From a virus, in the IMG/VR virus record IMGVR_UViG_3300029339_000415: a DNA stretch of 64,000 nucleotides, one strand, 5' to 3'. The first letter of the stretch is position 1; every line of letters begins with the position of its first letter. A program made the position numbers and the translations under genes. The notes under the pieces are model-generated. The model was not told where the DNA came from and ran no database searches. It worked only from the letters and a program-made list of their open reading frames with translations. Positions 18,427-49,940 of the stretch are shown in pieces.

Positions 18427-18446
18427 TGGAAAGAACGGTGATTACT

Positions 18447-32444: not shown

Positions 32445-32478
32445 TTCATAAAGGCGTGGTATAAATTCCACGCCGTAT

Positions 32479-32551
32479 GGATCATTAGCTTAATTGGTTA
32501 GAGCAACCGTCTCATAACGGTCGGTCATCTGTTCGAGTCAGATATGATCCA
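32479..32551 (+). tRNA. tRNA-like gene (probable tRNA-Met/Ile2, CAT) with irregular 16-nt anticodon arm
   Basis: 7-bp acceptor GGATCAT/ATGATCC, D-arm GCTT/GAGC, T-arm ATCTG-TTCGAGT-CAGAT, discriminator A; anticodon region ACCGT-CTCATA-ACGGT is one nt short of canonical. Confidence 0.5.
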
Positions 32552-32578
32552 TTAAAAATAAAAGAAAGGAACTAATAA

Positions 32579-33708: not shown

Positions 33709-35829
33709 ATGGAGAATATAACAATAGAAGCAATTAACAAAAATAAATATAAGAAAGAAGAGGTACAAAACATGGATGGATTTATGATGTTTAAGAAGGC
33801 TTTACAGAAGCACTTCGATGAAATGCAGAAAGAGGCAACACATTTATTTGAGGTAAATGTAGATAAGGATGAATTATGGAATACATATCTTGATAGCTTC
33901 CCTGCTGGTACAAATGAGATTTTCAGAGAGCGTAGAGAGCATGATTGTAGTTGTTGTAGACAGTTTATTAAGAATATTGGTTCTGCTGTCACTATCAAGG
34001 ATAACCAGATTCATACGATTTGGGAACTGAATCTTGGTGATACAACATATCAGCCAGTATGTGATGCACTTGATACTTTTGTAAAAGCTCATACAGTTAC
34101 AGATATTTATACAACTAAGTTCCCCAAAATTGGTACAGATTTTAACTTTGAGGAAATCAATGAAAAATCTCATCAGTGGGATCATTTCTTCTTAGAGCTT
34201 CCAAACAAGTTCGTAAATAGAAGTAGTCGTTCTAACGAGGAAGTTAAAGGACAGTTCAGAGATACAAGAAATGTATTTAAGCGTTCTCTCGATGAGATTA
34301 CTATGGAAGCACTTGATACAATTCTTGAACTTATCAATTCAAATACGCTTTACAAGGGCGAAGAGTGGAAAGGTGTACTCGCAGAGTTCAAGAAGTATAA
34401 GAAGGAATACGATAAGCTGACTTCTGATACTGAAAAGGATTTATATGCTTGGGAGAAGTCGGTAACAGCAGGTATGGCTATCGGTAGAATTAGAAATCAT
34501 TCTATTGGAACACTTCTTATTAATGTAAGTGAGGATATGGATCTTGACACAGCAGTTAAGAAGTATGAGCAGATTGTCGCTCCAAGCAATTATAAGCGTC
34601 CAAAGGCTATTTTTACAAAGAAGATGCTTGAGGATGCAAAGAAGACTATTACAGAACTTGGATATATGGATTCATTACAGAGAAGATTTGCTAATCTGAA
34701 TGATATTACTGTAAATAATGTATTGTTCTCAAACAAGAGTGCTGCAAGAAGAATGGTTGGTGCAGATGATATTTTTGGGCAGATGGAAAAAGATGTTGCT
34801 GTAAGTCCTAAGAAGTTTTCTAAGGTTGAGGAGATTTCAGCACAGGATTTCATTGATAAGGTACTTCCAACTGCAAAGGAGATTGAAGCTTTTGTAGAGA
34901 ATAAACATGAGAAGAATTTTGTTTCTATGATTGCATCTATTAATCCAGACGCTAAGACAATGTTCAAGTGGAACAATGGATTATCTTGGGCTTATTCAGG
35001 AAACATTACTGAGTCTGATATGAAACAGAATGTAAAAGCTGCTGGCGGTAATGTTGACGGTGTACTCAGATTTTCAATTCAGTGGAACGAAGACGGACAT
35101 GACAATTATGACCTTGATGCCCATTGTATTGAGCCAGATAAGAATGAAATTTTCTTTAGTAATTGTAGAAAGCCAAGTGTTTCAAGAATGGGTGGTCAGT
35201 TAGACGTTGATATTATTCATCCAGATGGAAAGGTTGCAGTAGAGAATATTACTTGGGAAGACCTGTCAAGAATGAAACCAGGTGTTTATAAGTTCTTTGT
35301 ACATCAGTATTCAGGAAGCGTAAGGCATGGATTTAGAGCTGAGATTGAATTTAATGGAGAAATTTACAAGTTTGATTACGATAAGTCGATGAGAACTGAT
35401 GAAAAGGTTCAGGTTGCAGAAGTAACACTCGATGAGAATGGAAACTTCTCAATTAAGGAGAAATTAGCAGGAAATTCATCTATTTCAAGCCGTGAGATTT
35501 GGGGTGTAAATACAAATCAGTTTGTTCCTGTATCAGTAATTAGTTATAGTCCAAATTATTTTGATGAGCAGGATGGAATTGGTCATAGGCATTTATTCTT
35601 CTTCCTGAAGGATTGTGTGAACAACGAAAGTCCTAATGGCTATTACAACGAGTTCTTAAAGAGTGACCTTGAAAAGCACAAGAGAGTATTTGAGGCTTTA
35701 GGTGCTAAGTGTCATGTAGAAGATACTGATGATCAGCTTTCAGGAATTGGATTTTCTATGACAAAGAGAGCAGATTTAGTTGTTAAGGTTAAGGGCGCAA
35801 CAGAGCGTGTAATGAAGATTAAGTTTTAA
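33709..35829 (+). CDS. large hypothetical protein (706 aa)
   Basis: longest non-fusion ORF in window; HDCSCCRQF motif near N-terminus; no family recognised by eye. Confidence 0.55.
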   Translation: MENITIEAINKNKYKKEEVQNMDGFMMFKKALQKHFDEMQKEATHLFEVNVDKDELWNTYLDSFPAGTNEIFRERREHDCSCCRQFIKNIGSAVTIKDNQIHTIWELNLGDTTYQPVCDALDTFVKAHTVTDIYTTKFPKIGTDFNFEEINEKSHQWDHFFLELPNKFVNRSSRSNEEVKGQFRDTRNVFKRSLDEITMEALDTILELINSNTLYKGEEWKGVLAEFKKYKKEYDKLTSDTEKDLYAWEKSVTAGMAIGRIRNHSIGTLLINVSEDMDLDTAVKKYEQIVAPSNYKRPKAIFTKKMLEDAKKTITELGYMDSLQRRFANLNDITVNNVLFSNKSAARRMVGADDIFGQMEKDVAVSPKKFSKVEEISAQDFIDKVLPTAKEIEAFVENKHEKNFVSMIASINPDAKTMFKWNNGLSWAYSGNITESDMKQNVKAAGGNVDGVLRFSIQWNEDGHDNYDLDAHCIEPDKNEIFFSNCRKPSVSRMGGQLDVDIIHPDGKVAVENITWEDLSRMKPGVYKFFVHQYSGSVRHGFRAEIEFNGEIYKFDYDKSMRTDEKVQVAEVTLDENGNFSIKEKLAGNSSISSREIWGVNTNQFVPVSVISYSPNYFDEQDGIGHRHLFFFLKDCVNNESPNGYYNEFLKSDLEKHKRVFEALGAKCHVEDTDDQLSGIGFSMTKRADLVVKVKGATERVMKIKF

Positions 35830-35850: not shown

Positions 35851-36240
35851 ATGACAAACAACGAATTATTTATTAATGCAACAAGAGCAAACTATCAGTT
35901 CCCATTCAGAGGGATGATTAATGTAATTGATTTGTGGGATTTATCTCTCACAAATCTGGACTCAGTATTTAAGACACTCAATGCAGAAGCAAAGAAGTCT
36001 GAGGAAGAGAGTCTTCTGAATACTAAGTCAAAGGAAGATGAGGAGATTTCTAACAAGATTGAAATTGTTAAGTATATTGTTGGCGTGAAGTTGGATGAGA
36101 AAAAGAAGAGAGAAGACGCTAAGAAAAATGCTGAGATGAGACAAAGATTGCTTGAAATCAAGGCTAAGAGACAGGATGCAGCACTTGAGAACATGTCTGA
36201 TGAGGATCTGGATAAGGCACTTGCAGAATTAAGTGAGTAA
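35851..36240 (+). CDS. hypothetical coiled-coil protein (129 aa)
   Basis: SD AAAAGGAGAT; KE-rich C-terminal half. Confidence 0.4.
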   Translation: MTNNELFINATRANYQFPFRGMINVIDLWDLSLTNLDSVFKTLNAEAKKSEEESLLNTKSKEDEEISNKIEIVKYIVGVKLDEKKKREDAKKNAEMRQRLLEIKAKRQDAALENMSDEDLDKALAELSE

Positions 36241-36296: not shown

Positions 36297-36352
36297 ATAT
36301 TTTACGCTAGAAAGAAACGCACATTTCATTAGAATTTTTGGAGGTTAAGACA

Positions 36353-37381
36353 ATGACAATTGAACAGATTAAGGACAAATTAAAATCAAAAGAGTATGAC
36401 TTCCTGAGAACAGATAAGAATTTGGGTAACAATATCATTATCTTAACTCTTGGTGGAAGTCATGCATATGGAATGGATAAAGAAGGATCTGATTTAGATG
36501 TGAGAGGTATTGCACTCAACAGCAAATCAGATATTTTACTTGGAACAGATTTTGAACAGGTCGTAAATACCGATACAGACACCACAGTATATTCATTTAA
36601 CAAAATGATTCAGCTTCTTACATCGAATAATCCTAATACAATTGAACAACTCGGTTGTCTACCAGAACATTATTTGCATTTGTCTGATATTGGAAGAGAA
36701 CTTTTAGACAATAGAAAAATGTTTTTATCAAAAGTTTGTATTCATACTTTTGGTGGTTATTCGTCTTCACAGTTAAGACGCATGGAGAACAAAGCTGCAA
36801 GGTTAGTTGGTCAGGCAGAAAATGAAGCATATATTTTGAGAAGTATTAACAATGCTCAATATGAATTTAAAAATAGATATTATCCATACAATGAAAGTGA
36901 TTTGAAACTGTATATTGATAAAGCTGTTCAGGAAGGATATGACAGTGAAATTTTTATGGATGTAAATTTGAAACATTATCCATTAAGAGATTGGGCTGGA
37001 ATGTGGAACGAAATGAAATCCATTGTAAGTAGTTACAGTAAATTTGGCAAACGAAATGAAAAAGCAGTTGCTCATGATAAACTTGGTAAACATATGGCAC
37101 ATTTGATTCGTTTATATATGATGTGTATTGATATTCTTGAAAAAGAAGAAATTATTACGTATAGAGCAGACGAACATGATTTGTTAATGAGTATTAGAAA
37201 CGGAGAATATTTAGATGAGAATAGACAGCCTATTTCTGAGTTCTATGATTTATTGAATGAATATGAAAAACGTTTTGAATACGCAAAAGAAAATACATCT
37301 TTGCCTGATAAACCTGATTATAAGAAAATCAATGAATTTAAGATGTATGTAAATGAGAGAATTGTGAAAGGAGATATCTGA
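36353..37381 (+). CDS. Pol-beta superfamily nucleotidyltransferase (342 aa)
   Basis: ILTLGGSHAYGMDKEGSDLDVRGI = hG[GS]x9-13DhD motif. Confidence 0.55.
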   Translation: MTIEQIKDKLKSKEYDFLRTDKNLGNNIIILTLGGSHAYGMDKEGSDLDVRGIALNSKSDILLGTDFEQVVNTDTDTTVYSFNKMIQLLTSNNPNTIEQLGCLPEHYLHLSDIGRELLDNRKMFLSKVCIHTFGGYSSSQLRRMENKAARLVGQAENEAYILRSINNAQYEFKNRYYPYNESDLKLYIDKAVQEGYDSEIFMDVNLKHYPLRDWAGMWNEMKSIVSSYSKFGKRNEKAVAHDKLGKHMAHLIRLYMMCIDILEKEEIITYRADEHDLLMSIRNGEYLDENRQPISEFYDLLNEYEKRFEYAKENTSLPDKPDYKKINEFKMYVNERIVKGDI

Positions 37382-38343
37382 TGGAAATATCAAATAGAGC
37401 AAAAGAAAGATTCTGTAAGGATTGCAATATACCAATTAGATTATTCCAAGAGCCATATTTTTTAGATAGAATTAAGCTTTTTGATGAGTTCTATGGAACT
37501 GTTGACAAGTGGATTAGATTTGCAAGCGAATTACAGGGGTATAATTGTGAGCAGGATTATTTTGAAGAATATAATCATGTAAAGGATGCAGCTATTACAA
37601 GTATCAAAGAGTCAGAGGCATATCAGAGATTTAATGCGGAAGATATGAACAAATTCACTGTGATTCATAAAAATTTATCTAATAAAGATATATTTAAGCC
37701 AACTAATACTGGAAGAGTTTTTATCAGTATTGATATGAGAAAGGCTAATTTTTCATCTTTACACGAATATGATAAGAATATATTTCGTGGGACTGATACA
37801 TGGGAAGATTTTATTTCTCAATTCACGGATAACGAACATATTGCAAATAGTAAATATATTCGTCAGGTAATTTTGGGTAATTGCAATCCCAAAAGACACA
37901 TCACCTATGAAAAGTACCTTATGGATCAGACATTATCGTTATTATATGACATCATTGGTGAAGAGAGAATTGTATTCTTTTCAAATGATGAGATTGTTTA
38001 TGATATGACAACAGCAAGTAATTTGCACATGTTAAATCTTGTGAGAAATTGTGTTGAAGAAAGATTAAGTACAAAATCTAATATTCCATTCAGAGTTGAA
38101 TTATTTTCGCTCCACAAAATCAATGGTACTGACGGATACTGTAAGAAAATCTATAAAGAAAATGGAAAATATAGTATTGAGTTTAAGTGTTTGGATAATT
38201 ATATAATGCCATTCGTACTTAGATACTTCTTGGGAGAAGAAGTAACTGAAAGTGACAAGGTATTCTACCACGAAGGGTTGCTTGCAAAGTTTATTGATAT
38301 ACCAAAAATTGAGGTGAATTTGAATGAAGAAATTGAAAATTGA
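37381..38343 (+). CDS. hypothetical protein (320 aa)
   Basis: overlapping start/stop ATGA with upstream gene. Confidence 0.45.
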   Translation: MEISNRAKERFCKDCNIPIRLFQEPYFLDRIKLFDEFYGTVDKWIRFASELQGYNCEQDYFEEYNHVKDAAITSIKESEAYQRFNAEDMNKFTVIHKNLSNKDIFKPTNTGRVFISIDMRKANFSSLHEYDKNIFRGTDTWEDFISQFTDNEHIANSKYIRQVILGNCNPKRHITYEKYLMDQTLSLLYDIIGEERIVFFSNDEIVYDMTTASNLHMLNLVRNCVEERLSTKSNIPFRVELFSLHKINGTDGYCKKIYKENGKYSIEFKCLDNYIMPFVLRYFLGEEVTESDKVFYHEGLLAKFIDIPKIEVNLNEEIEN

Positions 38344-39733
38344 AATTCCATCTGGTGCAAATGAAATTATCCATAGTCTACAAAATAATGGATATGAAGC
38401 TTTCTTAGTCGGAGGATGTGTGAGAGATAGTATTCTTGGCAGACCAATTCACGATTATGACATTACAACTTCTGCCACACCAGATGAAATGATGGAAGTA
38501 TTCAAGGACAAGAGAATTATTGAAACTGGTTTGCAACATGGAACTATTACCATTGTAATTGACGGTGAAGGATATGAATGTACAACTTACAGAATTGATG
38601 GTAATTACTCAGATAGTCGTAGACCTGATAGCGTAACATTTACACGAAGTCTTAAAGAAGATTTAAAGCGTAGAGATTTTACAATCAATGCGATGGCATA
38701 CAATGATGAAGTTGGTCTTGTAGATTCGTTTAATGGCATGGAAGATATTGAGCATTATAAAATCAGATGTGTTGGTAGAGCAGAGGATAGATTTTCAGAA
38801 GATGCTTTAAGGATTTTACGTGCTATTCGGTTTGCTTCACAACTGGGATTTGTGGTTGATTCTGACGTAAGTTTGAATATTCATAAAATGTATAAGAATT
38901 TAGAGAATATATCTATTGAGAGAATCAACAGTGAGTTCTGTAAGATTGCATTATCAAGCGAGTTTTATATACAGATAGGATTATTCCGTGAAGTATTTTC
39001 GTTATTTATCCCTGAAATAAAAGATATGTTTGATTTTCCACAGAATAATCCATATCACATCTATGATGTATGGGGACATACAATTCATGCAGTAGAAGCT
39101 TATGAATGTGATTGTGAACCCGACTTGAATCCAAGAGATTTAATTACGTCATTGGCTGTATTTTTTCATGATATTGGAAAGCCACATTGTTATCAAGATG
39201 GCGAAGATGGTATTAGACATTTTAAAAGTCATGGAAAAGTCAGTGCTGATATGACTGATACAATTATGAAAAGACTTCGTTTTGATAATGATACAAGAGA
39301 AAAGGTTGTTGGATTAGTCTATTATCATGATGCAACTTTTGAAGTGGGTGAAAAGTATATCAAGAGATGGCTCAATAAGATTGGAGAAAAACAATTTAGA
39401 AGATTACTGAATGTTCGTAGAGCAGATATTAAAGCGCAGGCTTATACAGAGCAAGAGAGTAGGCTTCAGAAAATTGACAACATCAAATATATCTTAGAGG
39501 AAGTTTTACAGAAAGACGAATGTTTCTCACTGAAAGATTTGGCTGTTAATGGCAATGATTTGATTGAGATCGGATATAAGCCAGGAAAAGAAATAGGGAA
39601 TACACTGAATTGTCTTTTGCAGTTAGTAATTGAAGGTGTATATCTAAACGAGAAAAGTGAGTTACTTAAATATATTGAAACAACAAAAGAATGGATGAAG
39701 TTAGGAGAGAATTATAATGGTAAGATTATTTAG
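38324..39733 (+). CDS. cca: class II CCA-adding enzyme / tRNA nucleotidyltransferase with HD domain
   Basis: head motif FLVGGCVRDSILGRPIHDYDITT; HD motif FFHDIGKP. Confidence 0.75.
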   Translation: MKKLKIEIPSGANEIIHSLQNNGYEAFLVGGCVRDSILGRPIHDYDITTSATPDEMMEVFKDKRIIETGLQHGTITIVIDGEGYECTTYRIDGNYSDSRRPDSVTFTRSLKEDLKRRDFTINAMAYNDEVGLVDSFNGMEDIEHYKIRCVGRAEDRFSEDALRILRAIRFASQLGFVVDSDVSLNIHKMYKNLENISIERINSEFCKIALSSEFYIQIGLFREVFSLFIPEIKDMFDFPQNNPYHIYDVWGHTIHAVEAYECDCEPDLNPRDLITSLAVFFHDIGKPHCYQDGEDGIRHFKSHGKVSADMTDTIMKRLRFDNDTREKVVGLVYYHDATFEVGEKYIKRWLNKIGEKQFRRLLNVRRADIKAQAYTEQESRLQKIDNIKYILEEVLQKDECFSLKDLAVNGNDLIEIGYKPGKEIGNTLNCLLQLVIEGVYLNEKSELLKYIETTKEWMKLGENYNGKII

Positions 39734-40643
39734 CCACAGTGATTTAGACGGAATTGGTTGTGGTATTTTAGCACAACTTGCATTTGGTAAAGATAATGTA
39801 GAAATTTCATATTGTGATTACGACAATATTGATTCAACTGTAAAGGAATATTTGGAAACAGAACAGGACGACACAATCCCAATTTATATTACCGATATTC
39901 GTGTTAATGAAGAAACCGCTGAGTTGCTGAATAAAAGAGGCAATGTTCAGTTATTAGATCATCATCCAACAGCTCTTGGATTGAATAAGTATGATTGGTG
40001 TGATGTAGTTATTGAAGATTCCAAAGGAATTAAAACATCGGGAACTATGTTGTTTTATCATTGGTTAGGTATGAATGGTTGTCTGAGTGAAGAGTTAGAG
40101 AATAATAAAGCGTTAGAGAGATTTGCTGAACTTGTGAGAGATTACGACACTTGGAGATGGTCAGAACTTGGTGAAGATGGTGTTATTTGTAAGCAGGTGA
40201 ACGATTTACTTTATCTGTATGGTCGAGATGATTTTATTCATTGGTGTATTTCAGAAATCCATGATGAGGTATTCCCAAGATTATATGCTAAAGATGAGGT
40301 TATTCTGAAGATTAAGCAGGATGAAATTGATAGATATATCGAAGAGAAGAATAAAACTATGTTTACCAGTCCTATGTGCGGTAAGGTTTGTGGTTTTGTA
40401 TTTGCAGATAGATTTGTTAGTGAATTAGGTAATAGACTTTGTAAAATGCATCCTGAAATTGATTTTGTGGCTATGATTGATATTGATGGTTGTACGGTAT
40501 CTTATAGAACCGTTAAAGAAGATATTGATCTTGGTAAAGATGTAGCAAGTTTATTTGGTGGCGGTGGTCATCCAAAAGCTGCTGGTTCAGAATTTAGTCA
40601 GAGTATTAAGTTGAAAGTTATTGAGGAAATCTTTGGACAGTGA
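39717..40643 (+). CDS. DHH/DHHA1 phosphoesterase (NrnA-like oligoribonuclease / pAp phosphatase)
   Basis: HSDLDGIGCG, LLDHHPT (DHH) and LFGGGGHPKAAG (DHHA1) motifs. Confidence 0.7.
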   Translation: MVRLFSHSDLDGIGCGILAQLAFGKDNVEISYCDYDNIDSTVKEYLETEQDDTIPIYITDIRVNEETAELLNKRGNVQLLDHHPTALGLNKYDWCDVVIEDSKGIKTSGTMLFYHWLGMNGCLSEELENNKALERFAELVRDYDTWRWSELGEDGVICKQVNDLLYLYGRDDFIHWCISEIHDEVFPRLYAKDEVILKIKQDEIDRYIEEKNKTMFTSPMCGKVCGFVFADRFVSELGNRLCKMHPEIDFVAMIDIDGCTVSYRTVKEDIDLGKDVASLFGGGGHPKAAGSEFSQSIKLKVIEEIFGQ

Positions 40644-40652
40644 GGTTAGAAT

Positions 40653-40862
40653 ATGAAAATTATTGTAGATAAAATGCCAGATGAACCAAAAGAATGCATC
40701 TTTTCTGAATGTACAAATCAGTTGCGTGGTAATTATGCATGTAATTTATACCAAGGAAGAGGATGTGAACCTAATAGATGCGATTTTTTAAAGCCAATTA
40801 CAGATTATCATGCGGTTGAACATATGGGTGATAATATAGCGAGAATGATACCAATAGAATGA
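40653..40862 (+). CDS. hypothetical Cys-rich protein (69 aa)
   Basis: SD TGAGGTTAGAA. Confidence 0.4.
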   Translation: MKIIVDKMPDEPKECIFSECTNQLRGNYACNLYQGRGCEPNRCDFLKPITDYHAVEHMGDNIARMIPIE

Positions 40863-40872
40863 GGTGAAATAA

Positions 40873-41316
40873 ATGACGTATAGAGAAGAAAATAAAGACT
40901 TATTTACAGTACCAGAAAATTATTATTTAGCACATTGTATTAGTGCAGATTTTGGAATGGGTAAAGGGATTGTAGTTGAATTCAATAAAAGATTTGATAT
41001 GAAACGAAAATTACAGACAAAATATCCAGATTATCTTAATCAGTATACTCATAAGAGAATTGGTGGTGACTGTCTATTAGAGGGTAGGGTATTAAATCTT
41101 ATTACAAAAGAGAGATATTTTCACAAACCAACAATTATCACAATGAGACTTGCACTTGAAAAGATGAAACAGATTTGTTTAAAGAATAATATCAAAAAGA
41201 TTGCAATGCCTGTAATTGGTTGTGGTTTAGATAGGTTGAACTGGAATGATGTCTCAGAACAAATTAAAAATGTTTTTGCAGATACGGATATTGAGATTTT
41301 AGTGTGTAAGAGGTGA
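40873..41316 (+). CDS. macro domain protein, TARG1/OARD1 (DarG-macro)-like ADP-ribose hydrolase
   Basis: LAHCISADFGMGKGIVVEF and AMPVIGCGLDRLNWNDV closely parallel TARG1 motifs LAHCISEDCRMGAGIAVLF and SMPRIGCGLDRLQWENV. Confidence 0.7.
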   Translation: MTYREENKDLFTVPENYYLAHCISADFGMGKGIVVEFNKRFDMKRKLQTKYPDYLNQYTHKRIGGDCLLEGRVLNLITKERYFHKPTIITMRLALEKMKQICLKNNIKKIAMPVIGCGLDRLNWNDVSEQIKNVFADTDIEILVCKR

Positions 41317-41319
41317 ATT

Positions 41320-42093
41320 ATGGCAGTATATGTAACAGGTGATATACATGGAAATCCTACACGATTAAGTAAAGATAGTTTCTATGAACAGAAAGATTTT
41401 TCTGGTAATAAAGATGAGAACACTGTAATTATTCTTGGTGATTTTGGTCTTGTATGGAATCGAGATGGAGAAAGTAAACAGGAAAAATATTGGTTGGATT
41501 GGTTAAATCAGAAACCATTCACAATTGTATTTGTTGATGGAAATCACGAGAATCATAAAAGACTTGCAACTTATTCTGTAAAAGAGTGGCGTGGCGGTAA
41601 GGTTCATGAAGTCAGATCTAATATATTGCATTTAATGCGTGGCGAAGTGTTTACCATTGAAAATAAGAAATTCTTTGCATTTGGCGGTGCATCAAGTCAT
41701 GATATTCAGGATGGCATTCTTGATTACAATGATGAAAATTGGAGAGAAGAAGCTAAGAAACTTGATAATCACGGTAAGTATATGTATCGCATAAAAGATT
41801 TATCTTGGTGGGAAGAGGAATTACCAACAGATGAAGAGATGCAGCATGGATTAGATGTTTTAAAAGAGAATAATAATTTAGTCGATTATATTATTACGCA
41901 TAGTCCTTCTACATCTGAATTATATCTTATGGGCGGTAAGTGGTTGTATAAACCAGATGTGTTGACTAATTATTTGGAAGAAGTGAAAGCTGCAACTGAA
42001 TACAAAAAACATCTGTTTGGTCATATGCATTTGAATAAGGCAATCAATCACAGAGATATTTGTTTGTATGAACAGATTATTAGAATATTGTAA
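41320..42093 (+). CDS. calcineurin-like metallophosphoesterase
   Basis: GDIHG, ILGDFG, VDGNHENH, FGHMH motifs. Confidence 0.7.
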   Translation: MAVYVTGDIHGNPTRLSKDSFYEQKDFSGNKDENTVIILGDFGLVWNRDGESKQEKYWLDWLNQKPFTIVFVDGNHENHKRLATYSVKEWRGGKVHEVRSNILHLMRGEVFTIENKKFFAFGGASSHDIQDGILDYNDENWREEAKKLDNHGKYMYRIKDLSWWEEELPTDEEMQHGLDVLKENNNLVDYIITHSPSTSELYLMGGKWLYKPDVLTNYLEEVKAATEYKKHLFGHMHLNKAINHRDICLYEQIIRIL

Positions 42094-42107
42094 AGTGAGG
42101 TGAGAAC

Positions 42108-42497
42108 GTGAAAATAAAAGATAAAATACGAAATAAATTAAGAACTTGGTTCTTTGAGACTGAATTAAAGGACTTGCAAAAATCTACTATACAGATGCAA
42201 ATGGCACGAAACCAATATTCAGACGCATATAGATTAGTCAATGATTGTCATCAATTAATAAATTCAATGATGGATGTCGGAACTGATATTCATTTACATA
42301 GCGACCATTCTTGGGCTGTTGTATGTATTAAAGGTCACCCAGAGTACGTATCATTTATGCCATTATCATCTGGTGATGCTCGTGATGTAATCAGATTTTT
42401 ACAACAATTCAAATATTCAGATAGGGTGATTGATTCACCTTTTGGATTTAAAAATATGATTAATGACCATATTATGGATAATCCATTTGTAAAGTAG
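42108..42497 (+). CDS. hypothetical protein (129 aa)
   Basis: GTG start after SD GTGAGGTGAG. Confidence 0.4.
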   Translation: MKIKDKIRNKLRTWFFETELKDLQKSTIQMQMARNQYSDAYRLVNDCHQLINSMMDVGTDIHLHSDHSWAVVCIKGHPEYVSFMPLSSGDARDVIRFLQQFKYSDRVIDSPFGFKNMINDHIMDNPFVK

Positions 42498-42563
42498 AGA
42501 ATAATCTAATATAGAAGTAATTCTATTCAAAGGCTGGTCAGCCAAATTAAGCGAGGTGATAAA

Positions 42564-42863
42564 GTGAAGAAATATTGGGAAACAGGTGAAAAGAATAAAT
42601 TTGGTAAGGAATGTTATAAATTACATTTTAGTCAATTTTATGAAGAAGATGATAAAAATGTAGTAGCTGGTTTTGTACAAGATGAGACAGACGAAAACAT
42701 ATTTATATATGTATCAAAAGAATTAAATGTTGAATATGATACATTGTTTGCAGACAGTATAGAAGATGCAAAGCATCGAATTGAAGAGATGTTAATAGAC
42801 CATTGGAATGAAGAGATTGATTATTTAGAAAATCGAATTAAATCATTTCAAGGCGAAGAATAA
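42564..42863 (+). CDS. hypothetical protein (99 aa)
   Basis: GTG start after SD GCGAGGTGA; flanked by similar GGCTGGTCAGCCAAATT / GGCGATTCAGCCAAATT hairpins. Confidence 0.4.
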   Translation: MKKYWETGEKNKFGKECYKLHFSQFYEEDDKNVVAGFVQDETDENIFIYVSKELNVEYDTLFADSIEDAKHRIEEMLIDHWNEEIDYLENRIKSFQGEE

Positions 42864-43056: not shown

Positions 43057-44025
43057 TTGACAGAGAATAATGAAAAAAATAATTATTGTGAGCTTAATGG
43101 ACGACCATTGCGTTTATTAATAGGTGGTTCACCTTGTACATTTTGGTCGATCTCACAATCACCCGAAAGAAGAGAAACCACTTGTGAAGGTACAGGATGG
43201 GAATTATTTAAAAATTATTTAATTACGAAAGAAAAATGGCAACCAGATATATTTTTATATGAGAACAACGAAAGTATATCAAAAGAAATTCAAAAAGAAA
43301 TCGAAAAACGATTAAATGTTAATCTATTACATATCAACAGTGCATTATTATCAGCACAAACTCGACATCGTATCTATGCTACTAATATCAATATTGATCC
43401 AAAAAATATTATAGATAAGGGTATAAGAGTGAAAGATATTCTTGATGTTAAATTCCATAAAGAAAACTTAATAAATGAGGTCAAATTTAATAACAGAGAT
43501 GATACTAAGGATAACAATAAACTTGTTAGAATTGGCACTATTGGTAAAGGTGGACAAGGTGAAAGAGTATATTCCATAAATGGTAAATCATGCACTTTGT
43601 CTGCCAATGGTGGTGGAAGAGGTGCAAAAACTGGATTGTATCTTATCAATGGAGAAGTAAGAAAATTAAATCCCTTAGAAGCAGAAAGATTACAGACGTT
43701 ACCTGATAATTATACATTATGTAATGGTGTTCCTGAAACGCAGCGTTATAAAAGTATTGGTAATGGATGGACGTCAGAGGTAATTATTCATATTTTAAAT
43801 CAGGGATTAAAGAATGTTCCACGAGATTATCCTATTGAAGTTCTAAGCTTATATGATGGTATTGCTACTGGTAGATATTGTTTAGAAAAAATGGGATTTA
43901 CAAATATTATATATAAAGCGTATGAAATAGATAAATATGCTATGAATGTTGCCACATATAATTATCCAGATATTGAAGAGTGTGGCGATGTATTCCAGGT
44001 TAGAAATGATGATTGGGAATATTAA
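43057..44025 (+). CDS. DNMT3-like DNA (cytosine-5) methyltransferase, circularly permuted (motifs IV-X then I-III); start codon uncertain
   Basis: LLIGGSPCTFWS (IV), EGTGWELF, FLYENNES (VI), QTRHRIYATN (VIII), ERLQTLPDNYT, GNGWTSEVIIHIL (X), then PIEVLSLYDGIATG (I) and GDVFQVRNDDWEY at C-terminus; no in-frame ATG, TTG 43057 overlaps a TTGACA -35-like hexamer, no SD. Confidence 0.55.
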   Translation: MTENNEKNNYCELNGRPLRLLIGGSPCTFWSISQSPERRETTCEGTGWELFKNYLITKEKWQPDIFLYENNESISKEIQKEIEKRLNVNLLHINSALLSAQTRHRIYATNINIDPKNIIDKGIRVKDILDVKFHKENLINEVKFNNRDDTKDNNKLVRIGTIGKGGQGERVYSINGKSCTLSANGGGRGAKTGLYLINGEVRKLNPLEAERLQTLPDNYTLCNGVPETQRYKSIGNGWTSEVIIHILNQGLKNVPRDYPIEVLSLYDGIATGRYCLEKMGFTNIIYKAYEIDKYAMNVATYNYPDIEECGDVFQVRNDDWEY

Positions 44026-44098
44026 ATAGAGAATAACATAAAAGGAAGGAGTAAGAGGTTTGGTATACCGAAAACGCAGCGTTTACTCCTGATATATA

Positions 44099-44824
44099 AT
44101 GATTTACATGGGAAGCAAAAATCGGTTATCAAAACAAATTGTACCGATTATACAGAATTACATAGACAATGGATGCAATGGTTATTTAGAACCATTCGTA
44201 GGTGGTGCAAATATTATTGATAAAATTGAATGCGACAATAAGATAGGAAGCGATATTGATAAATATGTAATCTCTGTACTTATTGGTTTGCAGCAAGGAA
44301 TTGAACCACCAAAAGAAGTATCGAAAGAATTTTATATTGATGTAAAAAATAATCCTGACAAGTATTCTGATTTTATAACAGGGTATATAGGATATGAACT
44401 TAGTTTTGGAGCAAAGTGGTTTGGGGGTTATGCAAAGCGTGATGATGCTAAACATCGTGGAGATATTTATTCTTACAAATCATGTATGAAGCAAGCTCCA
44501 AATCTTAAAGATATCCATTTTAGAACAGCTTCATTTTTAGATTATTCTAACTTATATGGGTATGTAATATATTGCGATCCACCGTATAAAAATACAACAA
44601 AATATAAAACAGGTGAATTTCCATATGAACAATTTTATCAATGGTGTAGAAAAATGTCTAAAGATAATGTTGTCATTATAAGTGAATATTCAATGCCAGA
44701 TGACTTTGATTGCATTTGGGAGAAACAAGTTAAGATTACATTTGACAGCAATAGAAAGTGTAATAGCATTAAGGATTTTCGAAGAGAAAAGCTGTTTGTG
44801 TATAAAAATAAAAGTTCTAAGTAA
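44099..44824 (+). CDS. Dam-family (D12 class) N6-adenine DNA methyltransferase
   Basis: GSKNRL...YLEPFVGGA N-terminal motif and YCDPPYKNTTKY catalytic motif. Confidence 0.7.
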   Translation: MIYMGSKNRLSKQIVPIIQNYIDNGCNGYLEPFVGGANIIDKIECDNKIGSDIDKYVISVLIGLQQGIEPPKEVSKEFYIDVKNNPDKYSDFITGYIGYELSFGAKWFGGYAKRDDAKHRGDIYSYKSCMKQAPNLKDIHFRTASFLDYSNLYGYVIYCDPPYKNTTKYKTGEFPYEQFYQWCRKMSKDNVVIISEYSMPDDFDCIWEKQVKITFDSNRKCNSIKDFRREKLFVYKNKSSK

Positions 44825-44890
44825 AGCGGAATTTCTTCTGAGTTCAGAGAACAAATACATATAAAAAATAAAGAAAAGAGGATTAAATAT

Positions 44891-45196
44891 ATGAGTAAAG
44901 CTGTTTTAGTGATGAACATGCCTGAAACTTGTTGTGATTGTAATTTTTGTAGAGAAATACAAGAAGGTATCGAAGCATGTTGTGAATTAATGGATGAGCC
45001 AAATGATAATACTCTTTGTAGAATGGTTGATAGTAAAAATGGATATTGTCAAGAAAAACCAAGTTGGTGTCCATTAAAAGAATTACCAGAAGAGACTCAC
45101 AATGATGAATATATGGATGAATATTGTGATGGTTATGATAATGGTTGGAACTCATTAAGAAAGGAAATTTTAGGCGAAGATGAGGAGAATAAGTAG
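44891..45196 (+). CDS. hypothetical Cys-rich acidic protein (101 aa)
   Basis: SD AAAGAGGATTA; CCDCNFC motif. Confidence 0.4.
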   Translation: MSKAVLVMNMPETCCDCNFCREIQEGIEACCELMDEPNDNTLCRMVDSKNGYCQEKPSWCPLKELPEETHNDEYMDEYCDGYDNGWNSLRKEILGEDEENK

Positions 45197-45544
45197 ATGA
45201 CAGTTGGTGTAAAAATATATGAAGCAAAAGATACAATTAAGAAATACGAAAACCTTGGGTATAGATTTGTTGGTGAAGAAAATGTAGGTGAAGGATACCT
45301 AAAGCTCATATTCAGAGATCCTATTATTCAAAAAGAGAATTTAATTAAAATACCAAATGTTTCATCTACTGTTACAGGTACGATTCCAAGAGTATTTCTT
45401 TTTAAAACTGATTTACCATTTGACGATGCCGAGAAAATAGGTGAATGGATTTATAAAAGTATTAAGAAAGGTGTGCTTGTTATTCCAGAATGTGTTGAAT
45501 TTATAGGTGTAGAAGATTTGTATAAGACAGAAAGGATAGAATAA
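45197..45544 (+). CDS. hypothetical protein (115 aa)
   Basis: ORF contiguous with previous. Confidence 0.4.
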   Translation: MTVGVKIYEAKDTIKKYENLGYRFVGEENVGEGYLKLIFRDPIIQKENLIKIPNVSSTVTGTIPRVFLFKTDLPFDDAEKIGEWIYKSIKKGVLVIPECVEFIGVEDLYKTERIE

Positions 45545-45742
45545 ATGAATAAAGAAAAACAAATTGAGGTATTAGAAGACCTGAAATCTTATGTAAATGA
45601 AAATTGGGATGAGTATGAATATGCAGATGATATAAACGATGCCAATGTAGCACTAGATGCAGCAATAACTTTACTCAAATCGTCTAAAGTTGCAGGTACA
45701 TTAACCATAAATAATAAAAGTTATATAGTTCTTGAAGGGTAA
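45545..45742 (+). CDS. hypothetical protein (65 aa)
   Basis: ORF. Confidence 0.35.
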   Translation: MNKEKQIEVLEDLKSYVNENWDEYEYADDINDANVALDAAITLLKSSKVAGTLTINNKSYIVLEG

Positions 45743-45781
45743 GAATCATAGATTTCTTAGTGGTTATAAAGGAGTATTTCG

Positions 45782-46129
45782 ATGAAAGAAGAATTGAAGG
45801 AAAATATCTTAATAATTGTTATACTACTGGCAATAATTGTAATGCCAATATTGGGAATATGTTTAACCACTCATCCAGAAATAAGACATATATCTTATTA
45901 TGATAATAACGATTATTATATGGTAAATGTTGTTGTTGGTTCTGGGAGAAGTGAAAAATCCCATTTTGGAGCAATTAAAAAAGATGATTATAACAAATGG
46001 GCAAATCAAGAAAATGGAAGTATATGGGTTGTTTCGTCTAAAGATGAAAGTCGAGGTTGGAGATTAAATATTGGTCTAATAACAACAATTCAAATATACG
46101 ATAGAAAATGGTTGCCATTAAATTTTTAA
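45782..46129 (+). CDS. membrane-anchored hypothetical protein (115 aa)
   Basis: N-terminal TM ILIIVILLAIIVMPILGICL. Confidence 0.4.
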   Translation: MKEELKENILIIVILLAIIVMPILGICLTTHPEIRHISYYDNNDYYMVNVVVGSGRSEKSHFGAIKKDDYNKWANQENGSIWVVSSKDESRGWRLNIGLITTIQIYDRKWLPLNF

Positions 46130-46363
46130 AAAGAATAAACAATAAATGAGGTAAAGCGAACTGAAAGCCTGAGATGGTGAAAAGGTAAAGGTAAAGGCTG
46201 AAATTAACAAGTCAGTCAACCGATGAGCGTATAGGCTGAAACTCATTTGAGAATATAATGCCTTGGAACAAACATCGATTCTAACATGTAATGATGAGGA
46301 ATAAGGATGCTCTCATAGAGTACAGAAATGAATGTACTCTCAATATGAAAAGAGGTGAAGTTT

Positions 46364-46684
46364 TTGAAGATCGTACAAAATAAATCACATTATGATTTTA
46401 GAATAAAAATCGGAAATGACTATATAACTATTGCAACGCTTCATCCGTGGTTGTTTAGTAAATATAATTATAAATACAATCTGTATTTTTATTATTATGG
46501 AGCTGAGTATGAGGAAGGAACGTATGCTTGCTGTCATAGAAATGGGAATGAAAAAATGGTTGTATATGAACAAGAGGATGAACTTCATAAAGAATTTCTT
46601 AAAAGAGTAACAAGGATAATTTCAAAGAAACTGTATGTTATAGGAAGTTCGATCTTGGAAGAAATAAAGTATATTGAAGATTAG
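46364..46684 (+). CDS. hypothetical protein (106 aa)
   Basis: TTG start after SD AGAGGTGA. Confidence 0.35.
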   Translation: MKIVQNKSHYDFRIKIGNDYITIATLHPWLFSKYNYKYNLYFYYYGAEYEEGTYACCHRNGNEKMVVYEQEDELHKEFLKRVTRIISKKLYVIGSSILEEIKYIED

Positions 46685-46712
46685 GAGAATAAATTAGCAG
46701 GAGGTAAACAAT

Positions 46713-47249
46713 ATGGAATATAGAGAGACTGATTTTTGTTGCGGTTGGACTATTGAACGAGCTGTAAAGGAATTACACAAAAGAGCAAAGGATGGCAATA
46801 AATATTGTGGTGAATTCAATGGGAATAAACTAACATCTGATATGTCTTTAGATGATGCTTATATGCTTTGTACAGGTAAAACTTTTGACGAATTTAATAA
46901 AGAACAAGAAGAAAGTCGTCAAAGATTAATTCATGAAGAGGAAGAACACAAAAGAAAAATCCCTGAATTATCAAAGTATTGGATAGAAGAAGGTCATAAG
47001 GTTTTATCTAAAGATAAATGGGATATGTGGGATAAATGTGTTCCTATTCGACTTGGTGATTTATACAGAGGAATGGAACTTGGTCAGTGCTTAGATATTA
47101 TCAAAACTATTAAAGAAAAATCTATCCAAGATGGAATTGAAATTATGAAAAATCAGGGACATTCTGGTATGTCATGGGGATTAATGAAGTCTATGATTAG
47201 AGAATTTTGTGATTGTGGCAATGAATTTTTAGAACAGTTAGGAGAATAA
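46713..47249 (+). CDS. hypothetical protein (178 aa)
   Basis: SD AGCAGGAGGTAAA. Confidence 0.45.
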   Translation: MEYRETDFCCGWTIERAVKELHKRAKDGNKYCGEFNGNKLTSDMSLDDAYMLCTGKTFDEFNKEQEESRQRLIHEEEEHKRKIPELSKYWIEEGHKVLSKDKWDMWDKCVPIRLGDLYRGMELGQCLDIIKTIKEKSIQDGIEIMKNQGHSGMSWGLMKSMIREFCDCGNEFLEQLGE

Positions 47250-47250
47250 T

Positions 47251-47514
47251 ATGGCAGGATTTGTATCAAAACAGCCAAATGGATTATATTGTAGATTTTC
47301 GAGTGTCACGGATTGTCCTACGGCATGGAATATGACAAGAGAAGATTATATCAATATGAAAATGCAGGAAGCAAAAGAAGACGCTGAAGATGTGTTGGAT
47401 AATTATTTAAAGCCGTTTGATATGGTGGTTGACATGTATTATCCAAACAATATGACAAAAGAGGAATTTGATGAATTCCTTGAAGAGACTGGATATGATA
47501 AGAAATCTAAATAA
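47251..47514 (+). CDS. hypothetical acidic protein (87 aa)
   Basis: SD TTAGGAGAATA. Confidence 0.4.
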   Translation: MAGFVSKQPNGLYCRFSSVTDCPTAWNMTREDYINMKMQEAKEDAEDVLDNYLKPFDMVVDMYYPNNMTKEEFDEFLEETGYDKKSK

Positions 47515-47547
47515 AGCAGAGAATAACATAATAGGAGGTGCAAATAA

Positions 47548-47961
47548 ATGCAGAATATTAGTATTAAGGGAGTTTGCGATTGTGTAGACTTAGACAGAAA
47601 TATCAAATTAACAAATGGTGCAGTCGTAGTGCAGAAAGAAAATAACAATGTAATAGGTGTTTATTTAGTGATTTCGTTCAGAGACAATAAAAACAAATAT
47701 GGTGGTGACACTACATCAACATATTGTAGTTTGGTAAATCTCGACAATGGACAATTAGCTTTTGAAGAAAGATGTAGTCGTGCTACAACAGAGAGACGTG
47801 TTCTTAGACATTTAACAAGAGCAGGTTTTAGTTATCCTTATGATCCAAATTCTCATGAGCAGGATAGTAAGTTTTATAATATGAGGGTTCAGGTTTATAA
47901 CAATGGAAATTACAAAATGAATCTTGAACTTGGTGATGAATACATTATGTATGGTAGATAG
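47548..47961 (+). CDS. hypothetical protein (137 aa)
   Basis: SD ATAGGAGGTG. Confidence 0.4.
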   Translation: MQNISIKGVCDCVDLDRNIKLTNGAVVVQKENNNVIGVYLVISFRDNKNKYGGDTTSTYCSLVNLDNGQLAFEERCSRATTERRVLRHLTRAGFSYPYDPNSHEQDSKFYNMRVQVYNNGNYKMNLELGDEYIMYGR

Positions 47962-47974
47962 GAGAATAAATCAT

Positions 47975-48334
47975 ATGAAGAAGAAAATTTTATATAGTTT
48001 GGCTTTACTATTAGCATTTATGTTTATATTAACCGGCTGTGCAAAATGCATTAGCACCGAAATATCTACGGTTCAAGTAAAAATAATAGATGAATATCAC
48101 AGGGCTGCTTATACAACAATGCATTATAGTCCTGCGACTAAAACGATGATACCACAATCGCATCCAGCAGTTTATAGAATTACTGTTGAATATAACGGTG
48201 TAGAATATAATATTTCTGGTAGTAATACATATAACAAATATTCAGACAAAATTGGAGAATATGTTGATGGAATATTAGAAACCAAGAAATATGACGATGG
48301 CACTGTTAGATACAATATTGTTGACTTACCATAG
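47975..48334 (+). CDS. lipoprotein (119 aa)
   Basis: signal peptide MKKKILYSLALLLAFMFILTGC with lipobox LTGC; SD TAGGAGAATAA. Confidence 0.55.
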   Translation: MKKKILYSLALLLAFMFILTGCAKCISTEISTVQVKIIDEYHRAAYTTMHYSPATKTMIPQSHPAVYRITVEYNGVEYNISGSNTYNKYSDKIGEYVDGILETKKYDDGTVRYNIVDLP

Positions 48335-48399
48335 TAAATAAATGATATTACAAAAGACACAGTAAACCGAAGTTTCTTTGCAACTTAGGAGGTATAAAA

Positions 48400-48741
48400 A
48401 TGCTATTTTCAGAAGCAAAAACGAAAATAGGAACTTGGACTGATATTGAATGTGTTCCTACTGGAAAGATTGAAACAAAAGAACAGTATGACTATTTAAA
48501 ATATTATGTTGAAAATACACCAATAGATGATAGATATATTAAATCATTTGAAGAATCAAAGGGTAAATATATACATATGGGATCTTGGTTTGGTGGTGCA
48601 GGGTTTTATTTTTATATGAGTGATGAACCACAAGGCGATTATAATTACAGAATAGAAGATAAAAATGGTGTAATTGTTGGTTATACAAAATATGAAGAAG
48701 ATTTTTCATATGGTAAATTAGGAAAAATTGAATTCGATTAA
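48400..48741 (+). CDS. hypothetical protein (113 aa)
   Basis: SD TTAGGAGGTAT. Confidence 0.4.
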   Translation: MLFSEAKTKIGTWTDIECVPTGKIETKEQYDYLKYYVENTPIDDRYIKSFEESKGKYIHMGSWFGGAGFYFYMSDEPQGDYNYRIEDKNGVIVGYTKYEEDFSYGKLGKIEFD

Positions 48742-48810
48742 GAGAATAATACATTGAAAGGAGCAAGAGATTTGCTGCAGCATTAAATCTGGATTTGCTC
48801 TGAGTAAAAA

Positions 48811-49674
48811 ATGTTAGAGATTAACAAAATATACAATGAAGATTGTCTTGAAGGTATGAAAAAGATTGATGATAAGTCAATTGATTTTATCTTCACGGAT
48901 TTGCCTTATAATACGACCAATAATTTTTGGGAATGTGAAATGCCGTTAAATGATTATGTCGAGTTATCAGGTCAATATTTTTATGAAACAGATTTATTTA
49001 AGTTAGCTCAAGTAACAAATAGTAGTCTTGAATATACAAGAGATTGGTTTTATGAGAACAAAAAAGATGGTTTATGGACTCATTACAATCGAATCATCAA
49101 AGATAATGGTTGTATTGCATTATGGGCGCAGTCACCATTTGATAAGAGACTCGCTTGTAGTAATGAAAAATTGTATCGCTATGAATGGATTATCGAAAAG
49201 ACCAAAGCAACTGGTCATCTAAATGCTAAGAAAATGCCTATGAAGGCACACGAAAATGTTTTGATTTTCTATAAAAAACTCCCTACTTACAATCCACAAA
49301 TGACAGAAGGACATACACCTGTTCATTCTTATACAAAACATACAACAGATGGCAACTGTTATGGTGCTACAAAGACTGGTATTTCAGGTGGTGGCAGTAC
49401 ACAAAGATATCCAAGAGATGTTCTGCAGTTCAAGTGGGATACTCAGAAAAGTAGCTTACATCAGTGCCAAAAGCCTGTTGAAGCATGTGAGTATTTTATT
49501 AAGACCTACACCAATCCAGGAGATTTAGTTCTTGATTCGTGTGCAGGAAGTTGTACAACTGCAGTTGCAGCTTTGAATATAGGTAGAAATTATATATGTT
49601 TTGAGAAGGACAAGGATATTTTTGAGGTTGGAAGTAAGAGAGTAGCTGAGTGCAAAGGAGAGAAAAATGACTGA
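48811..49674 (+). CDS. beta-class N4/N6 DNA methyltransferase (DNA methylase N-4/N-6 domain)
   Basis: motif IV IDFIFTDLPYNTT (DLPY variant of DPPY) and C-terminal motif I GDLVLDSCAGSCTTAVAA. Confidence 0.65.
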   Translation: MLEINKIYNEDCLEGMKKIDDKSIDFIFTDLPYNTTNNFWECEMPLNDYVELSGQYFYETDLFKLAQVTNSSLEYTRDWFYENKKDGLWTHYNRIIKDNGCIALWAQSPFDKRLACSNEKLYRYEWIIEKTKATGHLNAKKMPMKAHENVLIFYKKLPTYNPQMTEGHTPVHSYTKHTTDGNCYGATKTGISGGGSTQRYPRDVLQFKWDTQKSSLHQCQKPVEACEYFIKTYTNPGDLVLDSCAGSCTTAVAALNIGRNYICFEKDKDIFEVGSKRVAECKGEKND

Positions 49675-49873
49675 GAAAGAAAAATTATTAGAATACATTA
49701 AGAAACCAGTATTGACCACAGCAAGAAATAGCATGGGTTGTGATGAAAATTGGTATAATTCATATTTTGCAATCAAAGAGACTTTTTCGATTGAAGAAAT
49801 CAATTTTATGTCTGATAAGGAAGTAGCGAATCTCGTAAGACTTGGAGATTCAATGTCGGAAGCATTGTATTAA
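49667..49873 (+). CDS. hypothetical protein (68 aa)
   Basis: overlaps stop of MTase gene. Confidence 0.35.
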   Translation: MTEKEKLLEYIKKPVLTTARNSMGCDENWYNSYFAIKETFSIEEINFMSDKEVANLVRLGDSMSEALY

Positions 49874-49940
49874 AAATAAGAATAATGAAAGGAGACGAGG
49901 TTCGTGTACACAAGAAGGAATTCCTTACTCCAAGTAATTT

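Follow-up and report, generated by a model that had tools for sequence, protein, structure and literature searches.

Results

The macro-domain gene lies in a hypervariable accessory island

The gene under study is an intact, ATG-initiated frame of 147 aa (40873..41316 on the + strand, stop codon included) in the window, i.e., the whole 64-kb stretch of DNA analysed here. This is exactly the frame delimited by an earlier sequence-only reading, and both motifs quoted there are present in the 147-aa protein, LAHCISADFGMGKGIVVEF as residues 19-37 and AMPVIGCGLDRLNWNDV as residues 111-127. The opposite strand of 40873-41316 contains stop codons throughout. A Shine-Dalgarno-like GGTGA, read from the sequence, lies 5 nt before the macro ATG (40863..40867, +) and abuts the stop codon (40860-40862) of an upstream 69-aa Cys-rich ORF. 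The macro ORF is tightly packed between its neighbours, with the stop of the 69-aa ORF 10 nt upstream and the start of a metallophosphoesterase gene 3 nt downstream. Consensus scans for promoters and terminators stayed at chance level (38 promoter-like sites for 42 expected, and 2 terminator-like sites for 2.3 expected).

On the basis of Pfam and PHROG annotation, the gene belongs to a hypervariable accessory island (36338..42863, +) located downstream of a conserved DUF8224/129-aa gene pair. The island successively contains an RlaP nucleotidyltransferase, a 320-aa protein, a CCA-adding enzyme with an HD domain, a DHH phosphoesterase, the 69-aa Cys-rich ORF, the macro gene, the metallophosphoesterase, a 129-aa ORF and a 99-aa ORF, and several DNA methyltransferases adjoin it. 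The metallophosphoesterase (257 aa; 41320..42093, +) matches phrog_1649 (E = 3.6e-36), and PF00149 is recorded for it on sister contigs; PDB sequence searches with this protein and with the 320-aa protein gave no useful match. Note that, on one sister contig, a cassette of NAD-salvage genes follows a few kb further downstream. When the other ORFs of the window (45 aa or longer) were swept with Pfam, ART, KptA, RNA ligase, sirtuin, Nudix and NAD-salvage genes were all missing, and no TIR, Tpt1, 2H phosphoesterase or polynucleotide kinase gene was found in the window either. A PurA-like gene was also considered as a sign of a Z-genome (PurZ), and this was rejected because the Asp13 equivalent is retained.

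The window has a G+C content of 31.5%, and 138 of its 150 non-nested ORFs are on the + strand. The exact protein is listed in 233 assembly-index blocks, 30 of which have a longest carrying contig of at least 50 kb (the largest being 394 kb), and many viral contigs in IMG/VR, about 150-220 kb long, carry close relatives. Because no structural genes occur within the 64-kb window, the case for a phage is built on IMG/VR membership and PHROG matches; on these grounds the element is most probably a large AT-rich phage of roughly 150-220 kb, in agreement with the earlier description of the gene as phage-borne. Searched by megablast, GenBank phages gave no match to the 5-kb region. Relatives at 50-81% identity come mostly from genomes and MAGs of Lachnospiraceae, Oscillospiraceae and other Clostridia, and their taxonomy suggests gut Clostridia as the host group.

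The protein is a TARG1-type macro domain

In a phmmer search against all PDB sequences, the best five distinct sequences were human TARG1 (also OARD1 or C6orf130), with E = 6e-28 over residues 8-144, and the next family was the DarG macro domain, with two entries at E = 1.6e-4 and 0.014. The protein shares 46% identity with human TARG1 over 137 aligned positions. Counted from the phmmer alignment, 13 of the 19 positions of LAHCISADFGMGKGIVVEF and 12 of the 17 positions of AMPVIGCGLDRLNWNDV match TARG1, so the claim that these motifs are near-identical in pattern holds for TARG1 but was overstated for DarG, whose structures show ~20% identity. The PHROGs collection assigns the protein to phrog_335, labelled 'phosphatase'. 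The generic Pfam model PF01661 matched residues 92-129 alone, with 21.6 bits for a gathering threshold of 22. As a precomputed Pfam hit is missing for most of the 120 nearest relatives that a big database lists, we treated this shortfall as an insensitivity of the generic model for this macro clade and not as evidence against membership.

The AF2 model, built from a 31-sequence alignment (pLDDT 97.6, pTM 0.91), shows alternating strands and helices and has the macro superfamily fold, i.e., a three-layer alpha/beta/alpha arrangement with a six-stranded sheet and an ADP-ribose cleft. All 147 aa lie inside this fold, which gives a single-domain architecture with no N- or C-terminal extension. Foldseek returned 128 PDB matches at E <= 0.001, of which the named ones are macro domains; the top matches were all TARG1, followed by DarG macro domains. 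Human TARG1 gave TM values of 0.82-0.87 for crystal structures and 0.76-0.82 for NMR models (identity 40-43%), ahead of the T. aquaticus and M. tuberculosis DarG macro domains (TM 0.74-0.78, identity about 20%), Bt_1257 (TM 0.74, 17%), Poa1p (TM 0.66-0.69, about 20%) and SCO6735 (TM 0.64, 18%). A Poa1p-type ADP-ribose-1''-phosphate phosphatase was rejected as an identity, as Poa1p ranks below TARG1, DarG and Bt_1257 and had no match in the PDB sequence search. The earlier proposal of a TARG1/OARD1-type macro domain is borne out by the E-value of 6e-28, the 46% identity and a predicted-structure TM of about 0.85. Altogether, we consider it secure, from sequence and modelled fold, that the protein belongs to the TARG1 subgroup of the ALC1-like macro class, and we predict it to be an ADP-ribosyl hydrolase.

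The catalytic dyad and the nucleic-acid-binding residues are kept

The catalytic dyad of TARG1 consists of Lys84 and Asp125; DarG keeps the lysine alone (Lys80), and SCO6735 has neither (PMC9411070, PMC7050489). In our alignment, K79 (codon at 41107..41109, +) corresponds to TARG1 K84, and D120 (codon at 41230..41232, +), located in GCGLDRL, corresponds to D125. The sequence-only reading had named loss of this lysine or aspartate as one observation that would speak against it; both residues are present. From the literature (PMC9411070) and the AdfM alignment described below, K79 would also be the equivalent of DarG Lys80. Of the 137 family representatives (from clusters at 50% identity), 136 have the lysine and 128 the aspartate. 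The binding-loop residues S24, D26, G30, G32, G116 and G118, which are 86-99% conserved, are all present, and the protein has every residue that is highly conserved among these representatives. With its active site intact, the enzyme is predicted to be catalytically competent.

The protein is basic (pI 9.2), and the TARG1 residues reported to mediate RNA binding, K50/R86/R126 (bioRxiv 10.64898/2026.03.31.715305), have counterparts in K39/R81/R121. It had also been claimed that TARG1 and the DarG macro domain remove ADP-ribose from thymidine in single-stranded DNA; indeed, all tested hydrolases of the class (TARG1, DarG and SCO6735) reverse the thymidine ADP-ribosylation made by DarT (PMC9411070). 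TARG1 also erases U-N3 and G-N1 ADP-ribose on RNA (bioRxiv 10.64898/2026.03.31.715305), and TARG1-type enzymes act promiscuously on protein Glu/Asp-ADP-ribose, O-acetyl-ADP-ribose and phosphate-linked ADP-ribose at nucleic-acid ends (PMC7050489). Because of this promiscuity, sequence alone does not fix the substrate.

The protein is neither a DarG nor an AdfM-type antidote

DarG was the sole family matched in PADLOC and NCBIfam, via its macro part only. In NCBIfam, the DarG model NF048014 gave 46.4 bits (cutoff 250; 3.1e-12) over profile positions 26-145 of 338. On the PADLOC DarG model, the protein reached 56.3 bits (8.6e-16, macro part only), close to Bacillus phage G gp437 (54.7 bits) and human TARG1 (67.4 bits), whereas PhiKZ AdfM (gp104), a validated phage anti-DarT2 macro enzyme, reached 132.9 bits. 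The likeness to DarG put forward earlier is thus lost in its specific sense. The macro domain of DarG (DarG2; PDB 5M3E, 5M3I, 7OMU) does share the macro class, the fold and the catalytic lysine with our protein, but the two are only ~20% identical and the aspartate of the dyad, kept here, is missing from DarG. Moreover, DarG has a C-terminal DarT-binding domain and forms an operon with darT, whereas our protein ends after its macro domain and has no adjacent darT, which rules out DarG identity. Neither darT nor any other ADP-ribosyltransferase gene was found in the 64-kb window, and none is a recurrent neighbour in 106 divergent loci; more broadly, neither the window nor 160 related loci showed a link to DarT.

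AdfM (PhiKZ gp104 and its chimallivirus homologues) was reported as a phage macro-domain enzyme that counters DarT2 (Cell Rep 2026, PMC13309987). It is homologous to our protein (25% identity, BLASTP 6e-7, hhalign probability 96.9%), and K79 aligns with AdfM K78, but the residue of AdfM that corresponds to D120 is not an Asp. With 25% identity and 56 versus 133 bits on the DarG model, an AdfM-type assignment (DarG2-like and close to PhiKZ gp104) was rejected in favour of a different subgroup.

The gene is variable in occurrence and conserved in sequence

To describe the island, 67 close relatives were anchored on the conserved upstream DUF8224 gene, each with at least 8 kb of downstream sequence. 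The macro gene is present in 31% of them (21/67), RlaP in 30%, CCA in 43%, DHH in 25% and the metallophosphoesterase in 16%, and the island genes come and go independently, in dozens of combinations. The macro gene showed no positive association with RlaP (4/21 macro-plus versus 16/46 macro-minus loci), CCA (6/21 versus 23/46) or DHH (3/21 versus 14/46), with odds ratios of 0.38-0.44. The metallophosphoesterase, in contrast, occurs more often with the macro gene (7/21 versus 4/46, p = 0.028, uncorrected for 8 tests and for relatedness), as does, modestly, the 129-aa ORF (p = 0.0098, uncorrected). A functional partnership of the metallophosphoesterase with the macro gene is possible and weakly supported.

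The RlaP/CCA/DHH/macro block is common to the window and four exact-match contigs. However, the RlaP-to-DHH cassette is usually missing at IMG/VR loci whose macro protein is at least 90% identical. Below about 88% identity the block is absent, and a few loci have RlaP, u320 or CCA homologues 1-8 kb away in another order. In the 106 divergent loci, each neighbour family is limited to 7 loci at most, with no ADP-ribosyltransferase among the recurring ones; the largest apparent neighbour cluster was discarded as an artefact of antisense ORFs overlapping the macro gene. Homologues in Lachnospiraceae genomes repeatedly lie beside genes for an Imm1-type immunity protein, a BrnT toxin and TnpV, i.e., in a context of mobile elements and orphan immunity genes.

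At the family scale, 2,524 matches were found at E <= 1e-5 in a collection of 5.8 billion proteins, and 3,193 clusters of 50% identity at E <= 0.001. Most of these proteins stand alone, at about 147 aa, and fusions within the macro clade involve NADAR (P0183), a DEAD/ResIII helicase or SLOG.

Selection was assessed on 25 distinct alleles with at least 85% amino acid identity (291 pairs). The median dN/dS was 0.12 and the maximum 0.29, and K79 and D120 are kept in all 25 alleles. The gene is under strong purifying selection and is functional where present; a decaying or decoy gene was rejected on the same grounds.

Discussion

Our analysis establishes the homology of this phage protein to TARG1, its fold and its intact active site, together with the purifying selection, orphan status and accessory distribution of its gene. 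From these observations we infer an enzymatic activity, a nucleic-acid substrate and a role in counter-defence. Our leading interpretation, held tentatively with a probability of about 0.4, is that the protein may act as an orphan antidote by freeing nucleic-acid bases of the ADP-ribose that the host has installed on them. During infection, a host ADP-ribosyltransferase defence would tag nucleic-acid bases with ADP-ribose; in the best-known example, DarT2, the thymine N3 of single-stranded DNA is modified and replication is blocked. The phage enzyme would then take the ADP-ribose into its pocket, holding the nucleic acid on the basic surface formed by K39/R81/R121, and the Lys79/Asp120 dyad would cleave the bond between ribose and base, releasing free ADP-ribose and restoring the template. 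ADP-ribosylated thymine is the leading candidate substrate, although the anti-DarT role put forward in the sequence-only reading would be one among several possible, and a role directed at DarT2-type toxins specifically is a more doubtful claim than the antidote function in general.

Several lines of evidence argue for such an antidote. The class reverses DarT thymidine ADP-ribosylation and TARG1 itself erases base-linked ADP-ribose on RNA, the nucleic-acid-binding residues are kept, and fusions in the clade join the macro domain to a helicase or to NADAR, an eraser of the DarT1 product. In addition, the gene is present or absent among relatives as part of a cassette island beside anti-restriction-type methyltransferases, its function is maintained (dN/dS of 0.12 and the dyad in all alleles), and the Lachnospiraceae homologues lie beside Imm1-type immunity, BrnT and TnpV genes. 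Two precedents point in the same direction, namely AdfM, a macro domain acting on DarT2 (PMC13309987), and AdfN, a NADAR protein acting on DarT1 (PMC11825919). On the other side, a DarT gene is neither found in the window nor recurrent in the 106 divergent loci, the chemistry of TARG1 is promiscuous, and with 25% identity to AdfM the protein is not DarG2-like. A systematic survey from the Aravind lab, which argued that soluble ADP-ribose derivatives are what most phage macro domains act on (PMC9503650), also counts against an antidote.

This survey would rather favour a scavenger or quencher of small ADP-ribose conjugates (O-acyl-ADP-ribose, ADP-ribose-1''-phosphate or ADP-ribose-derived immune signals), whose released ADP-ribose, or related nucleotides, the adjacent metallophosphoesterase would degrade in a second step. 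TARG1 does deacylate O-acyl-ADP-ribose (PMC7050489), SLOG-macro fusions occur in the clade, a sister contig has its NAD-salvage cassette, and the metallophosphoesterase starts 3 nt downstream and co-occurs with the macro gene. However, this co-occurrence is weak and uncorrected, the metallophosphoesterase is missing in two thirds of the macro-positive loci, and the window holds no sirtuin, TIR, KptA or Nudix gene. Poa1p, the ADP-ribose-1''-phosphatase, is a poorer structural match (TM 0.67) than TARG1 or DarG, and the conserved basic residues, like the fusions to NADAR and a helicase, speak for macromolecular substrates, so that we regard a small-molecule substrate as rather unlikely. A macromolecular substrate could also be a protein, with the enzyme taking mono-ADP-ribose off the acidic residues of host or phage proteins, either against a host ART defence or toxin or as an off-switch for a phage ART encoded elsewhere in the genome. 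Indeed, the Lys/Asp dyad is the TARG1 machinery that was defined on Glu/Asp-linked protein ADP-ribose (PMC7050489), whereas DarG, which acts on DNA only, does not have the Asp (PMC9411070, PMC7050489). Phage toxin-antitoxin-like pairs of an ART or sirtuin with a macro domain are known (PMC9503650), and Imm1-type immunity genes, which belong to polymorphic toxin systems, are among the neighbours in bacterial genomes. Yet no ART or sirtuin gene lies in the 64-kb window or recurs beside homologues, and the gene behaves as an orphan, which makes a protein de-ADP-ribosylase improbable in our view.

The island itself suggests an RNA-repair module, in which the macro protein would work with RlaP, the CCA-adding enzyme and the DHH phosphoesterase, either clearing ADP-ribose-1''-phosphate produced by KptA/Tpt1 or removing ADP-ribose caps from RNA 5'/3' phosphates during tRNA repair. 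In the window and the four exact-match contigs these genes do form one co-oriented, tightly packed block, and TARG1 removes phosphate-linked ADP-ribose from nucleic-acid ends (PMC7050489). This linkage is nevertheless not conserved, as shown by the odds ratios of 0.38-0.44 in the 67 relatives and by the absence of the block from most loci with a macro protein below 88% identity, and the window holds no KptA/Tpt1, RNA ligase, 2H phosphoesterase or polynucleotide kinase gene. After the synteny and association analysis of the 67 relatives and the divergent loci, an RNA-repair operon was dropped as an explanation, and we consider such a module very unlikely.

Returning to the antidote against base-linked ADP-ribose, the closest functional precedents differ from our protein in several respects. 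AdfM is likewise a standalone phage ALC1-like macro domain with no DarT-binding domain, and, as proposed here for our protein, it serves as an orphan antidote, removing a modification that the host places on DNA; however, AdfM is imported into the phage nucleus, and there is no sign of such a compartment here. AdfN, from T4-like phages, is a NADAR orphan antitoxin against DarTG1 (PMC11825919) and similarly represents the co-option by a phage of an antitoxin-type ADP-ribosyl glycohydrolase for counter-defence, as we propose for the macro protein, but its fold is unrelated and it is specific for guanine-N2-ADP-ribose, which TARG1 does not cleave. Both AdfN and the phage binder antidote AdfB predate the report on AdfM. 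As for human TARG1 (PDB 4J5R, 4J5S, 2EEE), it is also a single minimal macro domain (152 aa versus 147 aa here), with the Lys/Asp dyad, the ADP-ribose-binding loops and three basic nucleic-acid-binding residues all kept in our protein, which differs in being encoded by a phage of gut Clostridia and in having a short insertion (~residues 52-61) in the loop after helix 2.

The annotation of several phages already includes TARG1-like genes, e.g., in Fusobacterium phage Fnu1 (labelled 'O-acetyl-ADP-ribose deacetylase 1-like protein'), Bacillus phage G (gp437) and Lactobacillus phages LP65 (orf36) and LpeD (orf101), with phrog_335 'phosphatase' as the PHROG label. These genes belong to the same family (41-46% identity over the full length) and are also standalone in large phages; their neighbourhoods differ, however, and have no conserved partner in common, and the annotated neighbourhoods in phages G, LpeD and Fnu1 showed no conservation. 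Macro domains in general occur in 56% of jumbo phages (PMC9503650), and the concept of an anti-DarT macro domain has been published (PMC13309987). By contrast, no characterised phage TARG1-type enzyme with the Lys/Asp dyad is described in the literature searched, and the presence/absence polymorphism of the macro gene studied here, in a very abundant gut phage lineage, appears to be new. Our study thus provides a confident annotation and a reasonable, testable hypothesis, and no new principle.

A wider, speculative and on balance improbable version of the antidote hypothesis is that TARG1-type orphan macro domains could be broad-spectrum erasers, acting on thymine-N3 in DNA and on uracil-N3 and guanine-N1 in RNA, deployed against DarT2-like toxins and undescribed RNA-ADP-ribosylating defences of Clostridia, with the metallophosphoesterase destroying the released ADP-ribose. 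If this were true, the presence or absence of the gene among near-identical phages would track the ADP-ribosylating defences circulating in their hosts. Should the enzyme simply erase ADP-ribose that the host installs on phage nucleic acids, its presence or absence could already mark ADP-ribosylation-based immunity in gut communities. Orphan-antitoxin counter-defence, as described for AdfN and AdfM, would in that case extend to a second macro subgroup, the TARG1 type with its Lys/Asp dyad, and the protein would offer a compact bacterial-virus model of human TARG1 for the choice between DNA, RNA and protein substrates. The strategy would then reach the abundant and mostly uncultured large phages of gut Clostridia, through a family that is very common, with thousands of sequences.

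A hypervariable cassette island around the macro gene

Comparison with related loci (L168-L247) demonstrated that the region downstream of a conserved gene pair, the DUF8224 gene (33709-35829) and its 129-aa partner (35851-36240), is a hypervariable cassette island (36338-42863). Indeed, among the 67 close relatives selected through the DUF8224 anchor, the combination of island genes differs in nearly every one, and the varying genes encode an RlaP-family nucleotidyltransferase, a 320-aa protein (u320), a CCA-adding enzyme, a DHH protein, a 69-aa Cys-rich protein (c69), the macro domain, a metallophosphoesterase, and the 129-aa and 99-aa proteins u129b and u99. RlaP and u320, encoded in this order at 36338-38343, tend to co-occur, sometimes with the CCA-adding enzyme, and may form a module of their own for the repair of tRNAs or RNA ends; u320 itself had no match in Pfam, PHROG, PADLOC, NCBIfam or PDB.

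Directly downstream of the island, DNA methyltransferase genes are dense (43057-50663 and beyond), with a C5 enzyme (43057-44025), a D12/Dam-like enzyme (44099-44824), an N4/N6 enzyme (48811-49674) and a second D12/Dam-like enzyme (49941-50663); one more D12-class match lies among the searched ORFs spanning 30.7-33.7 kb and 45.2-64 kb. Such a dense set suggests that this part of the genome is an anti-restriction region.

Other genes of the window

The first 28 kb (1-28250) carry a RelE-like toxin domain (69-461), a HicA-like toxin, several HTH regulators, an AP2 domain protein and a tyrosine integrase (25184-26170), the last of which is unexpected in a phage this large if the element is strictly lytic. 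Further downstream, a 739-aa protein (28446-30665, plus strand) joins a GmrSD_N/NsnA-like (DUF262-type) region to an N-terminus that weakly matches regions 2 and 4 of sigma-70, a fusion that is unusual for a phage protein. Note that ARAGORN called a tRNA-like gene at 32478-32552 (plus strand) with no definite identity and an 'anticodon' of two bases (ca), which could be a degenerate tRNA, an unusual tRNA or a false positive.

At 59830-60918 (plus strand), a 363-aa adenylosuccinate synthetase homologue was identified (Pfam PF00709, E = 8.8e-36), whose match spans only profile positions 1-282 of 416. The PurZ enzymes of Z-genome phages have Ser in place of Asp in the N-terminal motif that reads GDEGKG here; the Asp retained in the homologue argues against a canonical PurZ identity, and the product looks like a shortened PurA-like enzyme.

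Relatives of the macro protein and of its neighborhood

Homologues of the macro gene also occur in bacteria, where L098, L100, L104, L107 and related loci belong to Lachnospiraceae. Seven bacterial loci share the same-strand order of macro homologue, Imm1-family immunity protein, small unknown ORF and BrnT ribonuclease toxin, and TnpV lies upstream in five of the divergent loci. Altogether, the Lachnospiraceae macro/Imm1/BrnT loci resemble an orphan-immunity/toxin-antitoxin array carried by a mobile element.

Within the macro clade, the TARG1-type domain is also found fused to SLOG domains (representative proteins P0129 and P0220), to a DEAD/ResIII helicase (P0270) and to NADAR (P0183); in principle, the last of these fusions could erase the products of both DarT1 and DarT2.

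A sister contig (L005, from Logan SRR8666055) encodes a macro protein identical to that of the window and, a few kb downstream (13200-19100), an NAD-salvage cassette composed of isochorismatase/nicotinamidase, phosphoribosyltransferase, NAMPT and NAD synthase genes, which is not present in the 64-kb window. This cassette is similar to the phage NAD-reconstitution pathways, which act against NAD-depleting defences.
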